The notes: generated from the sequence alone by a model not told the origin. A DNA stretch of 64,000 nt from Gammaproteobacteria bacterium (GCA_965116895.1 OZ220729.1:1882122-1946121), one strand, 5' to 3'. Shown: positions 43,001-62,059, counted from the first letter of the stretch. Numbers and translations: made by a program.

Positions 43001-43294
43001 CTAGTCGTCGCCTTCCCGCAGCACGAAGTAGATCCGATCGATGAATTCCCTGCGCTCCCGATCGAGCGCGGCGCGCTCGTCCTCGCTGAATTCGTAGGCT
43101 TCCACGGCGGCGGTGCTTATGCCCGCCTTGCCGAGCGCTTCGACGGCCGCCAGGCGCTCCCTGACCGCCCAAAGCTCCTGCGCCAGGCCCATCGTGATGG
43201 ACACCAGTTCATCGACGCCCTGAACGTCGAAGAACCGCGGCTGCTTGCCGCGGGTCAGGTCCCTCAGCCGAGTCTCCGGGGAATCCTTGGACAA
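43001..43294 (-). CDS. Small hypothetical protein (64-97 aa, start uncertain)
   Basis: Coding-like codon usage between the methyltransferase stop (43305) and TBDR-3. Candidate starts are TTG 43294, GTG 43207 and ATG 43195. Sequence ..FFDVQGVDELVSITMGLAQELWAVRERLAAVEALG..EFSEDERAALDRERREFIDRIYFVLREGDD is predicted helical and I recognise no family. Confidence 0.4.
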   Translation of the reverse strand: MSKDSPETRLRDLTRGKQPRFFDVQGVDELVSITMGLAQELWAVRERLAAVEALGKAGISTAAVEAYEFSEDERAALDRERREFIDRIYFVLREGDD

Positions 43295-43304
43295 GGGCCC
43301 CGCC

Positions 43305-44504
43305 CTACTTCCAGGCTCCGAAGCAATACCAGCGGATCGACGGCACCAGGCGCCCGGTGTTCTCGTCCACGGTGATATCGTCCCGCGATACGTAAGCCTG
43401 CAGTTCCTCCTCGCCGTTGCGGGCAAGGCTGGGCACGATGAATTCCACGAAGTTCGACTCGTCGAATCCGCCCGCCGTGCAGCAGTCGATCGGACGCATG
43501 TCGCGGAACGCCTTGTAATAGGGCTCCTGGTTGTAGTAGCTGTCCCAGTCGAAGTAGAAACTCTCGTACGGCACGGTGTGGCAGTTCGGGGGCAGTTCCA
43601 TGTGCAGCATCAGCCCGCCGGGACGCAGCAGCCGGTATGCCTCGCGGAACACCGCCCGCACTTTCTTGGGCGGCAATTCGTGCAGGAACATCGACGACCA
43701 GACGATGTCGAAACCGGGCTCGCCGTCGAAATCGCATTGCGAGGCGTCCATTTGCCGGTAATGAACCCGCGCGCCCAGCACTTCGGCGCGGGCGTGGGCG
43801 TAACGCAGCATTGGCGCCGCGACGTCCACGGCATGGACCTCGGCTTCGGGAAACGTGCGCGCCCAGGGCAAGGTATTCGAGCCGATCGAGCATCCCATGT
43901 CGAGGATGCGGCGCGGGCGAAATTCCGGAAATTTCAGCGAAATGAAGCGCGCGATGCTGCTGCCGATGTCGTCGCGCTCGCTGCCGAACAGCCCCATGCT
44001 GAACACGGCGCCGCCGTTGTCGTACAGCGCGCCCGCGGCCACGTCGTCGTCGCCGTATTCCGTGTGGTAGCAGCCCGGCATCAGGTGCACGTCGTGGTTG
44101 GCCACGTACGGCGGCGTTTCCAGGTCCGGGTCGAGCGTAATCGAACCGCCTTGTCCGCCTCCGTTGGCGTCCACGCCGGCGACCCTGCGGTTCAGGTCTT
44201 CCAGGTTGCGTTCGATGGTGGGGATGACCGATCGCCAGACGAGTTTCTGGCAGTTCACCCGCATGGCCGAATAGAAGCGGTAGGAACTCTCGCCCCGCAT
44301 CGCCCTGTGAACTTCCGCGCCGTCGGCGGGCTCCCGGCCGTTTTTGCGAACGAGTTCCGGTTTCACCTTAGTGTGGTATGCGGAGCGCATTCCGTTCGCC
44401 AGGTCCCCCAGGATGTGGCGGCGTATGTCGGAGACGAAACGCTGGCGCGACAACTCGTCCCGGGTGGGCTTGATCCGCAGGTCGTGGCGTACGTGGTCGG
44501 TCAT
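43305..44504 (-). CDS. Class I SAM-dependent methyltransferase with ~170-aa N-terminal extension
   Basis: SAM motif I ILDMGCSIGSNTL, post-I AVDVAAPML, motif IIVWSSMFLHELP, LLRPGGLML. The N-terminal region is unassigned. Confidence 0.75.
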   Translation of the reverse strand: MTDHVRHDLRIKPTRDELSRQRFVSDIRRHILGDLANGMRSAYHTKVKPELVRKNGREPADGAEVHRAMRGESSYRFYSAMRVNCQKLVWRSVIPTIERNLEDLNRRVAGVDANGGGQGGSITLDPDLETPPYVANHDVHLMPGCYHTEYGDDDVAAGALYDNGGAVFSMGLFGSERDDIGSSIARFISLKFPEFRPRRILDMGCSIGSNTLPWARTFPEAEVHAVDVAAPMLRYAHARAEVLGARVHYRQMDASQCDFDGEPGFDIVWSSMFLHELPPKKVRAVFREAYRLLRPGGLMLHMELPPNCHTVPYESFYFDWDSYYNQEPYYKAFRDMRPIDCCTAGGFDESNFVEFIVPSLARNGEEELQAYVSRDDITVDENTGRLVPSIRWYCFGAWK

Positions 44505-44647
44505 TACGGCAGTCCTCCCTTGCCCGGAATCATACTACGCGGCCGTTTTGTGCGGCCACGTCGTTGAACTTCAGCGATGGCGCGCGGAATTCCGTTTAGA
44601 CTTAGCGCCCCGCCGGTCGGAGAGACCGGGAAACTGAGGGGTACTTG

Positions 44648-45658
44648 GTGAGCGAGGAAATCATTGCGCCGGACGGATCGCCCTTGCGGGCCGCCGTTAT
44701 CGGCTGCCGCGACGTCGAAAAGTCACTGGCCTTCTACCGGGACCGCATCGGCCTGTCGGTGCTTGCCGACGAGGTCCTGGGCGGCCCGGCCTTTCGCAGC
44801 TTCTGGAACCTGAACGGCGGAGCCTCCGCCCGAGCCGTCCTGCTGGGGCAAGGCGACGAGGGGGTCGGGCAGGTCCTTCTGCTCGACTTTCATCTGCCCG
44901 AAGGCAGCGCCAGTCCCGTGGAAATCCGCGATCGCAGCATTGTCCGGGCCTATGGATGCTTCAATCTCAATTTCTATACTGCCGACATTCACCGCGATTT
45001 CGAGGGCTTGAAGAAAGACGGCTACGTCCTCTGGTCCGATCCCGTCCAGCACTTTTTCGGGGACGACGTGGGCGATCCCATAGAAGGCATTTTCGAAGGT
45101 CCCGACCGCGTGCCGATCAACCTGGTGGAACTCGCCACCCGCGACACGGCGACGCGCGTGGGCCAGATGCGCGCCTACGTCGAGCAGCGCGGCTATACCG
45201 ATGCCGGCTTCACGCCCATCGTGACCAGTTCGCATGGCGTGGATTCGAGCGAACGCGCGATGGCCTTTTACGAACAGGTCCTGAACATGAAGCCGCTGAT
45301 CGACGAGGTCCTGGGCACGCCGGAGTCCAACCGCCTGCTGAACCTGCCCGAGGACGCGAAGACCCGCGTCGTGTTCATGCAGGGCAACCACATGTTCGGC
45401 AAGGTGGTGCTGAGCCAGCCGCTGAATTACGAGTGCGAGTCCCTGATCGAGCGGGCCAAACCCCCGAACGTCGGTTACCTGGCACAAACCTTCGCGGTCG
45501 GCGACCTGGAGGAGGCGGCCGGCAGGTGCAGCGCGCTGAAAGCGGAGGTCCTGAGCAAGCCCCAGGAAACTCCATGGCCCGGTTCGGGCAGCGTTTCCGC
45601 GATGCTGGTGCGGAACCCCGGCAGCGGAGCGCTGCAGATATTGATGGAGGATGCGTAA
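44648..45658 (+). CDS. Two-domain VOC (glyoxalase/bleomycin-resistance/extradiol-dioxygenase) family protein 1
   Basis: GTG 44648 lies 6 nt after GAGGGG; TTG 44645 is also possible. Repeated beta-alpha-beta-beta-beta modules (LRAAVIGCRDVEKSLAFYRDRIGL.. and IVTSSHGVDSSERAMAFYEQVLNM..). Confidence 0.65.
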   Translation: MSEEIIAPDGSPLRAAVIGCRDVEKSLAFYRDRIGLSVLADEVLGGPAFRSFWNLNGGASARAVLLGQGDEGVGQVLLLDFHLPEGSASPVEIRDRSIVRAYGCFNLNFYTADIHRDFEGLKKDGYVLWSDPVQHFFGDDVGDPIEGIFEGPDRVPINLVELATRDTATRVGQMRAYVEQRGYTDAGFTPIVTSSHGVDSSERAMAFYEQVLNMKPLIDEVLGTPESNRLLNLPEDAKTRVVFMQGNHMFGKVVLSQPLNYECESLIERAKPPNVGYLAQTFAVGDLEEAAGRCSALKAEVLSKPQETPWPGSGSVSAMLVRNPGSGALQILMEDA

Positions 45659-60943: not shown

Positions 60944-60958
60944 GCCTCGGCCACCGGC

Positions 60959-61279
60959 TTACGCATCCGGCGTCTCCTCCAGACCGTGATTGCGAATGAG
61001 CGCCAGCAGGCTCTCATCCGAGTATCGCGCTTCGATCCCGGCCGCAAGCCTTTCGGCGACCGCCTGCAGATCGTCCGCCGCGGCATCCGACCCGGGCCTG
61101 ATCGGTTCCCGCGCCCATTCGCTGAGATAGGCATCGGCGCTTTGCTTCTTCGCCCGCATGGCGGCGCGATCGATGGCGTTCTGGAAGCGCCCGCTCAACC
61201 GCGCCCTTGCGCGCAGCCTGCCCTTCCTGACAATCACCTGTGCGGGAATGTCGCGCCACTTCACCAGGACGGCGTTCAT
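60959..61279 (-). CDS. Small conserved protein often found in corrinoid-methyltransferase clusters (tentatively the family annotated 'virulence factor'); function unknown
   Basis: ATG 61279 (MNAVLVKWRDIPAQVIVRKG...) or ATG 61318. The family assignment is from memory of the WRDIPAQV-type N-terminus and is tentative. Confidence 0.45.
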   Translation of the reverse strand: MNAVLVKWRDIPAQVIVRKGRLRARARLSGRFQNAIDRAAMRAKKQSADAYLSEWAREPIRPGSDAAADDLQAVAERLAAGIEARYSDESLLALIRNHGLEETPDA

Positions 61280-61333
61280 GGCGTCAGCCCGCTTCCTCCC
61301 GGCGGACCCGAATCCCATTCGGAGCGACCCGCG

Positions 61334-62059
61334 TCACCCGTGCTTGTGCCTTTCCCGCATCAGGTGGGCGGCGGTGTCCACCGCGGTGGCGGCATCGCGG
61401 CAATAGGCGTCCGCGCCCACTGCCTTGCCGAATTCCTCGTTCAGGGGCGCGCCGCCCACCAGCACAATGTAGTCCTCGCGGATGGACCGGGCCACCAGTT
61501 CGTCGATGACCACCTTCATGTAGGGCATGGTGGTGGTCAGCAGCGCCGACATGCCGAGAATGTCCGGGCGGTGTTCCTGCAGCGCTTCCATGTAGCTTTC
61601 GACGCTGTTGTTGATGCCGATATCGATCACCTCGTAACCGGCGCCCTCCATCATCATTCCCACCAGGTTCTTGCCGATGTCGTGGATGTCGCCCTTGACC
61701 GTGCCGATCACCATCTTGCCGACCGGCTTCGCGCCCGTCTCGGCCAGCAACGGCCGCAGCACGGCCATGCCGCCCTTCATGGCGTTGGCCGCCAGCAGCA
61801 CCTCCGGGACGAACAGGATGCCGTCGCGAAAGTCGATGCCGACGATCCGCATGCCCTCCACCAGGGCGTCGCTCAGCACCTTTTCCGCCGACCAGCCCCG
61901 TTCCAGCAGAATCTCCGTGCCTTCAACGATTTCATCCCTGAGACCGTCGTACAGATCGTCGTGCATCTGCTCGACCAGCTCATCATCGGCAAGCTCGGAG
62001 AGGACGAAGTCGTCCGACTGATTGGCGGCCTTGTCCTTGCCGTCCGCGTCGTCGTTCAT
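61334..62059 (-). CDS. Corrinoid (cobalamin-binding) protein
   Basis: ATG at 62059 with GGAGG 8 nt upstream; the track start 62074 is a TTG. B12-binding cap helix domain plus Rossmann domain with DxHxxG (GDIHDIGKNLV), SALLTTTM and GGAPL. Confidence 0.85.
   Translation of the reverse strand: MNDDADGKDKAANQSDDFVLSELADDELVEQMHDDLYDGLRDEIVEGTEILLERGWSAEKVLSDALVEGMRIVGIDFRDGILFVPEVLLAANAMKGGMAVLRPLLAETGAKPVGKMVIGTVKGDIHDIGKNLVGMMMEGAGYEVIDIGINNSVESYMEALQEHRPDILGMSALLTTTMPYMKVVIDELVARSIREDYIVLVGGAPLNEEFGKAVGADAYCRDAATAVDTAAHLMRERHKHG

Follow-up and report, generated by a model that had tools for sequence, protein, structure and literature searches.

What does a sulfotransferase do between a receptor and a carrier in a gene cluster for the demethylation of betaine-like compounds? 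The question is raised by a region of about 19 kb (positions 43001-62059) in a stretch of 64,000 nucleotides from a Gammaproteobacteria bacterium (GCA_965116895.1 OZ220729.1:1882122-1946121), here called the window, in which a tetratricopeptide repeat (TPR) sulfotransferase (ST) is flanked by a TonB-dependent receptor (TBDR), named TBDRc or TBDR-5, and a BCCT carrier. A preliminary description of the sequence had suggested that the whole region may be one accessory metabolic island for onium-type osmolytes. Comparison with related loci led to a different picture: the region is a mosaic of modules around a stable core, the trio of TBDRc, ST and BCCT.

The ST was used to scan one genome per species from about 185,000 species, and 548 relatives were found. 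Our locus comparisons are based on the best 80 of these 548, each with 10-kb flanks and 57-93% identical to the ST over the full length; these best-scoring loci are phylogenetically related and, therefore, the counts are not counts of independent events. The window proteins were mapped onto the 80 loci, and genes called de novo with a codon-model caller, which misses short genes, were clustered. Hosts are sponge-associated and free-living marine Gammaproteobacteria ('Ca. Foliamicus', Pseudohongiella, Woeseiaceae, Haliea, Kineobactrum, Microbulbifer, SAR92, OM182) and some Alphaproteobacteria (Maricaulis, Hellea, Hyphobacterium). With the window counted, 76 of 81 loci have a TBDRc orthologue immediately in front of the ST and in the same orientation; the other five are cut by contig ends, and the pair is thus found in 76 of 76 loci with a usable upstream flank, with the receptor 2.7 kb upstream. 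It spans at least eight lineages: the clade of sponge metagenome-assembled genomes (MAGs), Pseudohongiella, Woeseiaceae, Haliea/Kineobactrum, Microbulbifer, SAR92, OM182 and Maricaulis/Hellea. The reciprocal look-up gave the same order, since four out of four TBDRc homologues picked by receptor similarity alone (65-74% identity) are followed by a TPR-ST and then by a BCCT gene, with MttB/DMGDH or CaiB-like genes alongside. TBDRc and the TPR-sulfotransferase are an obligate pair.

The carrier is nearly as constant. A BCCT gene is present in 67 of the 80 loci and lies directly downstream on the same strand in 55 of them, where the genes are at most 119 nt apart or their reading frames overlap. 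In the window, the stop codon of the ST and the start codon of the BCCT gene overlap as ATGA, as read directly from the sequence, so that the coupling of sulfotransferase and carrier that had been noted before is borne out. The carrier has a full-length BCCT domain and exceeds the cut-off of TIGR00842; the betaine-specific and the choline-specific models stay below their cut-offs. TBDRc has no close solved homologue. A function as cobalamin receptor was considered and rejected: the window has no cobalamin riboswitch, BtuB models match the plug domain only, and the pair also adjoins B12-independent sarcosine oxidase, Rieske and BHMT-like systems. Between the stop codon of TBDRc and the start of the ST (55700-55725, minus strand) there is a perfect GC-rich hairpin, GGCGTCCTCC-CCGG-AGGACGCC, which has no T-run.

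A full-text literature search found no description of a system of TBDR and TPR-sulfotransferase, with or without BCCT or autotransporter; the nearest entries were a neighbourhood survey from 2010 and a halotolerance gene list. The TBDR-TPR-sulfotransferase-BCCT module appears to be undescribed. In the CUT loci, the TBDR uptake loci of Xanthomonas and Caulobacter, an outer membrane TBDR, an inner-membrane carrier and a cytoplasmic enzyme are likewise found in one operon beside catabolic genes, but the ligand of the trio would be a small onium osmolyte instead of a glycan, and the embedded enzyme is a sulfotransferase. A paralogous cluster was seen in Haliea (L063) and Kineobactrum (L066) at about 12-19 kb on the opposite strand; it comprises a 785-aa TBDR, a TPR-ST of about 520 aa, a secreted beta-lactamase-fold hydrolase and an MFS carrier. 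Its layout is that of the trio, only the carrier is different.

In many loci, the trio is surrounded by genes for the catabolism of N-methylated compounds, in varying form. MtgBCD-type genes were found in 34 loci, DMGDH or Sox genes in 23 (orthologues of the dimethylglycine (DMG)-dehydrogenase-like gene of the window also in 23) and genes of folate-linked one-carbon metabolism (MTHFR, FTHFS, PurU) in 27. In the sponge clade (the window, L003, L005, L006, L011 and L047), the mtg genes stand ahead of the TBDR and point in the same direction as one array; those of Pseudohongiella and Woeseiaceae are divergent from the TBDR and occur with RACo, DUF1638, MTHFR and FTHFS. Microbulbifer rhizosphaerae has soxBDAG-purU in front of the TBDR, a Microbulbifer MAG a Rieske oxygenase alpha subunit, and in a Woeseia MAG (L073) a BHMT-like homocysteine S-methyltransferase follows the ST. 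In L185, the trio is bordered by carnitine-type genes, which encode a CaiB-like CoA-transferase and an enoyl-CoA hydratase. In SAR92 (L076) and Hellea (L079), TBDR-ST is followed at 12-17.4 kb by Ldh_2, aldehyde dehydrogenase, a peptidase-M19-like protein and a 566-aa protein without Pfam match, which may constitute a pathway for another N-alkylated compound; the Hellea locus has a DMGDH gene further on. The check by co-occurrence thus gave a split result: ST and BCCT, TBDRc, the corrinoid demethylation set and the DMGDH-like gene co-localise in dozens of genomes from several bacterial families, in line with the earlier proposal of linked uptake and demethylation of betaine-like compounds, and the remaining modules do not.

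The demethylation part is already known. MtgBCD was shown experimentally to be a cobalamin-dependent glycine betaine demethylase in Ruegeria pomeroyi (PMC12478193), and the set in the window likewise consists of a non-pyrrolysine PF06253 methyltransferase, a B12-binding corrinoid protein and a pterin-binding methyltransferase. The 513-aa open reading frame (ORF) of the MtgB-like protein is uninterrupted and has no in-frame amber codon. Its best solved relatives are the glycine betaine methyltransferases 9yce and 2qne (184 bits), tied with another family member, and its distance to MtgB (2qne) is about the same as to other solved members of the family; orthologues with 81-91% identity are found near the trio in many loci. 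For the MtgC-like protein the best NCBIfam match is the glycine-betaine-specific corrinoid protein MtgC, under its cut-off. The small PF13769 protein has the same position, between corrinoid protein and pterin methyltransferase, in many related loci, and in relatives DUF1638 stands at this spot. Loci related to the window also carry DUF1638, a RACo/RamA-type activase, MTHFR and FTHFS; the window differs from the known system in that its genes are arrayed with TBDR, ST and BCCT and that DUF1638 and activase are missing from it. Both may be encoded elsewhere in the 2.83-Mb genome. Judged by sequence, the corrinoid set matches the MtgBCD kind and would methylate tetrahydrofolate at the expense of glycine betaine or a related quaternary amine. 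Rfam gave a single hit in the window, PYLIS_3, the mttB pyrrolysine insertion sequence (58847-58946, minus strand; 39.1 bits, gathering score 38); it is most likely coding-sequence homology, because it lies inside an MttB-family coding region without amber codon. A homocysteine S-methyltransferase domain (PF02574) is part of one database homologue of the ST (P0109; 86% identity, 630 aa), either as a fusion or as an artefact of assembly or gene calling, which echoes the BHMT-like neighbour in Woeseia.

The ST itself consists of about ten TPRs (residues 1-400) and a Sulfotransfer_3 domain (405-656). In an AF2 model (pLDDT 86, pTM 0.81), residues 1 to about 400 are predicted to form an all-helical TPR superhelix and 405-656 a sulfotransferase fold; the best structural matches of the TPR part in Foldseek are the TPR domains of OGT and SPINDLY. 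For the catalytic domain, Foldseek with the full-length protein was uninformative because the TPR domain dominated the results; by sequence, it is nearest to human TPST1/2 (E about 2e-6) and the OLS/CurM ST (8e-6). In 44 homologues, the motifs GLPRAGSTLL and DARRHP for binding of 3'-phosphoadenosine-5'-phosphosulfate (PAPS; 5'-PSB and 3'-PB) show no or almost no variation, and many TPR residues are likewise invariant. A signal peptide was not found in the ST, and the N-terminal extensions of homologues are polar and disordered. The ST is cytoplasmic, with intact PAPS-binding motifs. In databases the family is only named 'sulfotransferase' or 'TPR repeat protein'.

More distant homologues were looked for by tblastn in 72,556 plasmid and chromid records, which gave 64 records with 25-44% identity; 20 neighbourhoods were read, one of them unannotated, leaving 19. 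In about 12 of the 19, an exported surface protein adjoins the ST, and these represent four secretion routes: five TBDRs, four autotransporters, two type I secretion operons and one flagellin. In Asticcacaulis, the order is TBDR, family-2 sulfotransferase, Asp/Asn beta-hydroxylase, TPR-ST. In a locus for sugar use, Novosphingobium pentaromativorans has the ST between two TBDRs (TBDR-ST-TBDR), of which the downstream one is the closest relative of TBDRc among those compared (256 bits); in N. capsulatum and two Pseudoalteromonas species a TBDR adjoins the ST. Autotransporters are found next to the ST in Thalassospira, Pacificitalea, Enterobacter sp. 638 (ST-GT8-autotransporter) and Ralstonia solanacearum. 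The megaplasmid of the latter (L163, 3684-11392) encodes an autotransporter (943 aa), the TPR-ST, a 372-aa protein of unknown function and a gene with a CysC/APS-kinase domain (Pfam); the autotransporter is absent from the distributed gene table and was recovered by ORF and Pfam searches. The matching place is present in about 15 Ralstonia megaplasmid records, in one of which the neighbourhood was read. A plasmid of Comamonas endophytica (L172, 1-11572) carries genes for a giant cadherin-domain protein, an 878-aa TPR-ST and TolC-ABC-HlyD type I secretion, a layout that parallels RaxST with RaxABC. In Sulfitobacter the ST occurs with type I secretion genes and a calcium-binding protein, and in Paroceanicella beside flagellin.

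OGT, SPINDLY, FlmG and Aah/TibC combine an N-terminal TPR superhelix with a C-terminal transferase as the ST does, the match being structural for OGT and SPINDLY, and it is established that surface proteins are modified before they leave the cytoplasm by the autotransporter heptosyltransferases Aah/TibC and by the flagellin glycosyltransferase FlmG. Unlike these glycosyltransferases, the catalytic domain of the ST is a PAPS-dependent sulfotransferase, and a TBDR would be a substrate class without known precedent. In the RaxST/RaxX/RaxPQ system of Xanthomonas oryzae, a cytoplasmic TPST-like bacterial sulfotransferase also goes along with dedicated CysD/CysC-type genes for PAPS, RaxP being a CysD homologue and RaxQ a CysN-CysC fusion. 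The substrate, RaxX, is a co-encoded protein that is exported after modification. RaxST is reported to sulfate RaxX and the outer-membrane protein Omp1X (PMC4892823). The enzyme of the window differs in its TPR superhelix of about 400 residues and in having a TBDR and a BCCT carrier as neighbours instead of a small peptide with type I secretion; its CysD-like protein is without a conserved loop and without CysN. The OGT-like architecture, the precedents of Aah/TibC and FlmG, the report on RaxST and the exported neighbours together lead us to infer a protein-directed sulfotransferase. Judged by these features, the ST probably modifies a protein, its receptor, rather than an osmolyte.

In TBDRc, residues from about 378 to 420 form a highly conserved segment rich in Tyr and Asp with two conserved cysteines, DYSDYLFVGQYLPYYICDYY...TRCHPP. 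Should the ST act on its receptor, this segment would be a candidate for the site of sulfation.

Where could the PAPS come from? The CysD-like protein, CysD', aligns with CysD of Pseudomonas syringae (PDB 1ZUN) in two blocks (269 bits) and has kept the PP-loop SAGKDS, but residues 167-196 of 1ZUN, 30 residues with the motif WDPxxQxPExW, are replaced by a short glycine-rich linker. The segment is likewise lost, with linkers of differing length, from four other ST-linked CysD' homologues that were aligned (51-66% identity). A metagenome scan with CysD' returned only canonical CysD (47-54% identity), which served as control set: WDPxxQxPExW is kept in 76 of 80 canonical CysD loci, and a CysN-type GTPase lies directly downstream in 60 of the 66 with enough flank. 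The CysN motif GxVDxGKST is found nowhere in the window. Compared with sulfate activation by CysDN and CysC, the window shares the PP-loop CysD homologue and a CysC above the family cut-off; it differs in that CysD' lacks the WDPxxQxPExW segment and a CysN GTPase and travels with CysC as a two-gene cassette beside the ST. The loop-less CysD' appears to be undescribed and may be a CysN-independent adenylyltransferase, or inactive; it raises the question of whether sulfate can be activated without a GTPase subunit.

The cassette was found in 5-6 loci. In the window it is located behind VOC2, about 6 kb from the ST; in five other genomes it is directly beside ST or BCCT, and it converges on one of these two genes in L002, L004, L007, L008 and L011. 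A cysC gene also follows the distant ST homologue in Ralstonia. The recurrence of the cassette near the ST in differing arrangements argues for a functional tie to the ST. Of the VOC-VOC-CysD-CysC group that had been put forward as a source of adenosine 5'-phosphosulfate (APS) and PAPS for the sulfotransferase, the link of CysD'-CysC to the ST/BCCT genes stands, and the capacity to form APS is to be qualified by the missing loop and the missing CysN.

Our overall reading, to which we give about even weight, is a mosaic in which the trio is the core of betaine-type uptake, the ST is directed to a protein and CysD'-CysC is the source of PAPS. TBDRc and BCCT would carry a quaternary-ammonium osmolyte across the outer and the inner membrane, respectively. 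MtgBCD would then demethylate glycine betaine or a related amine, with transfer of the methyl group to tetrahydrofolate, and the DMG-dehydrogenase-like gene would provide the next catabolic step. The ST would most likely sulfate its own co-encoded receptor, TBDRc, before export, with the TPR superhelix holding the unfolded receptor chain as in OGT, and APS/PAPS would be supplied by the CysD'-CysC cassette. It is tempting to speculate that the sulfate groups on the receptor would help to capture cationic onium ligands at the outer membrane. A wider version is tentative and, to us, somewhat less than an even proposition: the TPR-STs would be a large unrecognised family of bacterial protein O-sulfotransferases that decorate co-encoded surface proteins such as TBDRs, autotransporters, type I secretion adhesins and flagellin while these are still in the cytoplasm; here, TBDRc would be an anionic trap for onium osmolytes that feeds BCCT and MtgBCD, with PAPS from a minimal, CysN-independent CysD'-CysC.

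Several points weigh against this reading. The idea of a protein substrate is drawn from architecture and gene neighbourhood, and the ATGA coupling to the BCCT gene would also fit an enzyme that acts on an imported molecule. The catalytic domain resembles TPST no more closely than it does the small-substrate CurM/OLS sulfotransferases. No exported partner was seen in about 6 of the 19 neighbourhoods of distant homologues, and TBDRs are abundant in Novosphingobium, Asticcacaulis and Pseudoalteromonas, so that the adjacency there could be partly chance. A motif common to ST-linked TBDRs and absent from other TBDRs was not found. CysD' may be inactive as ATP sulfurylase, and RACo, DUF1638, MTHFR and FTHFS, companions of the mtg genes elsewhere, were not found by tblastn in the 64-kb window. 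Finally, the 80 loci are the best-scoring part of the 548 relatives and share descent.

If the ST did not act on a protein, the first candidate would be the osmolyte itself. The ST would O-sulfate an onium compound that has been imported and bears a hydroxyl group, as in the conversion of choline to choline-O-sulfate, with TBDR and BCCT as importers and CysD'-CysC as supplier of PAPS; osmolyte sulfation of this kind had been suggested in the preliminary description. The trio has the typical layout of a TBDR nutrient locus with receptor, inner-membrane carrier and cytoplasmic enzyme, the ATGA overlap couples enzyme and carrier, the PAPS cassette is directly beside ST/BCCT in five other genomes, and Sulfotransfer_3 includes enzymes with non-protein substrates such as CurM/OLS. 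However, the neighbouring pathways degrade glycine betaine, sarcosine and carnitine, and choline would be lost to them by sulfation; glycine betaine lacks a hydroxyl group, and betA, betB or betC were not seen in the annotated parts of the loci. Nor is there an evident use of a conserved 400-residue TPR region for a small-molecule enzyme, and no imported osmolyte is apparent where distant homologues stand beside autotransporters, type I secretion adhesins and flagellin. We consider sulfation of the osmolyte unlikely, though it is the most serious competitor of a receptor-directed ST.

Next, the TBDR-ST pair could be unrelated to onium compounds, the betaine genes being inherited synteny. Indeed, in about half of the 80 loci a betaine-demethylation gene is missing within 10 kb, and distant homologues occur in sugar-use and other contexts, as in Novosphingobium pentaromativorans. 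On the other hand, a BCCT gene accompanies the pair in 67 of 80 loci, and its reading frame often overlaps; the association recurs with non-homologous enzymes of betaine and sarcosine use, in differing gene orders and in differing families, which is hard to reconcile with inherited synteny. The absence of any functional link is therefore improbable in our view.

By analogy to the ST-TE of CurM, sulfate could also be a catabolic leaving group: the ST would activate a hydroxyl, such as the beta-hydroxyl of carnitine, for elimination, and a hydrolase or dioxygenase would complete the reaction. The similarity of the ST domain to OLS/CurM, the alpha/beta hydrolases near TPR-STs in the window, Thalassospira and Pseudoalteromonas donghaensis, and the CaiB-like and enoyl-CoA-hydratase genes that flank the trio in L185 would fit. 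But alpha/beta hydrolases are common genes and none is next to the ST in most of the 80 loci, the TPR domain is left unexplained, and we know of no such pathway for onium compounds, all of which makes this route very improbable. Least probable of all is that the ST modifies a small metabolite that is secreted and then recovered through the TBDR in a siderophore-like cycle, as Iyer and co-authors proposed in 2010 for neighbourhoods with TBDR, dioxygenase, halogenase and sulfotransferase (PMC2938197) and as the Asticcacaulis locus with its TBDR, two sulfotransferases and Asp/Asn beta-hydroxylase might suggest, since the partner is a BCCT carrier in a catabolic context and no genes for scaffold biosynthesis (non-ribosomal peptide synthetase, polyketide synthase or similar) were found next to the trio in the annotated loci.

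Glycine betaine is a major marine currency of carbon, nitrogen and methyl groups. Its cobalamin-dependent demethylase was reportedly recognised in aerobic bacteria only in 2025, and to our knowledge it is not understood how betaine-type compounds are captured at the outer membrane. The trio of receptor, ST and carrier beside betaine catabolism in marine and sponge-associated species points to this missing uptake step. Protein sulfation in bacteria is, as far as we know, described for essentially one system, RaxST. If the ST is indeed directed to proteins, a broad TPR-ST family would extend protein sulfation to outer-membrane and surface proteins in general, and cultured carriers would be on hand with Microbulbifer, Kineobactrum, Ralstonia solanacearum and Enterobacter sp. 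638.

The remaining modules of the region do not share the distribution of the core, and this is what speaks against the single island. TauD, hydrolase and TBDR-4 are found in 6-9 of the 80 loci, all in the closest clade, and the methyltransferase and VOC genes in 3-4, all close relatives. The arrangement of the modules in L001, the nearest relative (93% identity), differs from that in the window, and in L003, L005 and L009 VOC1-VOC2 occur without CysD'-CysC behind them. TBDRa has no orthologue in the related loci. Both add-on modules are lineage-specific neighbours of the core.

The first of them comprises the TauD-family protein, a hydrolase and TBDR-4 (TBDRb). The hydrolase is conserved together with TauD in 6 loci; TBDRb, whose gene is divergent from that of the hydrolase, occurs in 7 loci, all in the closest clade. 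The Tat-like signal of the hydrolase and the divergent orientation of the TBDRb gene suggest an uptake module of its own, restricted to the sponge clade. The best solved relative of the TauD-family protein is TauD of E. coli, and its score stays below the cut-off for taurine dioxygenase. In the alignment, the ligands of iron and 2-oxoglutarate and Arg270 are kept (H99, D101, H255, T126, R266, R270), and H70Q, Y73L, N95L, S158Y and F159Y are changed. In the TauD structures, Arg270 binds the sulfonate, and Y73, N95 and S158 hold the amine of taurine. As a lead, this pattern would point to a sulfonate or sulfate ester without primary amine, such as choline-O-sulfate or an N-methylated taurine, whose oxidative cleavage would, again as a lead, yield betaine aldehyde. 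The module may serve uptake and desulfonation of an N-methylated taurine or a sulfate ester. In the second module, the S-adenosylmethionine (SAM) methyltransferase recurs together with the 97-aa ORF in 3-4 close relatives.

The window has a GC content of about 65%, because of which raw ORF lists are full of spurious frames; genes were, therefore, chosen by third-position GC and then confirmed with Pfam and NCBIfam (Table 1).

Table 1. Genes in and around the 43-62 kb region of the window, with the evidence for their assignment
Feature	Position	Strand	Evidence
TBDRa (probably TBDR-3), downstream of methyltransferase and 97-aa ORF	40735-42966	-	Pfam
Conserved 97-aa ORF behind SAM methyltransferase	43004-43294	-	
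Class I SAM methyltransferase, 399 aa, 190-aa N-terminal part without assignment	43305-44504	-	generic methyltransferase matches only, Pfam/NCBIfam
VOC1, two-domain VOC/glyoxalase fold	44645-45658	+	Pfam
VOC2, two-domain VOC/glyoxalase fold, tandem with VOC1	45658-46614	+	Pfam
CysD' (CysD-like)	46616-47464	+	317 bits vs CysD models, equivalog cut-off 413
CysC, APS kinase	47461-48048	+	PF01583 194 bits; NF003013 218 bits, cut-off 163
TBDRb (TBDR-4), divergent TonB-dependent receptor, 690 aa	~48164-50236	-	Pfam
Alpha/beta hydrolase with RRR Tat-like signal	~50345-51298, start uncertain 50204-50393	+	Pfam
TauD-family Fe/2-oxoglutarate dioxygenase	51295-52116	+	262 bits vs taurine dioxygenase model, cut-off 313
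BCCT carrier, 512 aa	52113-53651	-	PF02028 555 bits; TIGR00842 457 bits, cut-off 407.55
TPR-sulfotransferase (ST), 656 aa, TPR + Sulfotransfer_3	53648-55618	-	Pfam; PF13469 176 bits
TBDRc (TBDR-5), TonB-dependent receptor, 878 aa	55744-58380	-	Pfam plug + barrel
MtgB-like, MttB-family methyltransferase, 513 aa	58443-59984	-	PF06253 362 bits
MtgD-like pterin-binding methyl-corrinoid:tetrahydrofolate methyltransferase	60044-60943	-	PF00809; NF005719 358 bits, cut-off 259
Small PF13769 ('Virulence_fact') protein, between mtgC and mtgD	60959-61318	-	Pfam
MtgC-like B12-binding corrinoid protein	61334-62074	-	PF02310 + PF02607; NCBIfam MtgC 196 bits, cut-off 370
Dimethylglycine/sarcosine-dehydrogenase-like gene (DAO + FAO_M + GCV_T), cut by window end	62204-64000	+	Pfam

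Seven co-directional genes on the minus strand, from 62074 to 52113, form the array mtgC, PF13769, mtgD, mtgB, TBDRc, ST and BCCT, from which the DMG-dehydrogenase-like gene is divergent. VOC1-VOC2-CysD'-CysC are one tight, operon-like array on the plus strand, in which the TTG start of CysC overlaps the stop codon of CysD' as TTGA. The 3' end of the hydrolase gene overlaps the start of the TauD-family gene by 4 nt.

With small corrections, every gene class listed in the preliminary description was found again by Pfam and NCBIfam, including the partner of TauD, which is the alpha/beta hydrolase on the strand opposite to TBDR-4. Of the three TBDRs placed in 43001-62059, TBDR-4 and TBDR-5 lie inside and TBDR-3 ends 35 nt before its start. 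A 1068-aa ORF for TBDR-4 (48164-51370, minus strand) is over-extended, an artefact of high GC; the actual gene encodes about 690 aa, and the first approximately 380 codons of the long ORF are the arginine-rich antisense of the hydrolase gene. A scan of 43-62.4 kb for promoters and terminators gave nothing above shuffled controls. The view of a horizontally acquired genomic island was rejected: the GC content is 0.62-0.68 throughout the window, no tRNA was found in it, integrase or mobility genes did not turn up among the window proteins scanned, and housekeeping genes such as metG occur in the same 64 kb, as do genes for an ABC peptide transporter and for a molybdopterin complex of respiratory type.

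Two further clusters of the window may be mentioned. Genes for a multihaem cytochrome c, a molybdopterin-type subunit, a 4Fe-4S protein and an NrfD-like membrane protein (24850-29848, minus strand) resemble a respiratory module of the alternative-complex-III type and are unrelated to the trio. Upstream of metG (12185-15492, plus strand), a POT-family peptide transporter is followed by a full-length homologue of peptidase M2, the angiotensin-converting-enzyme family (738 bits).

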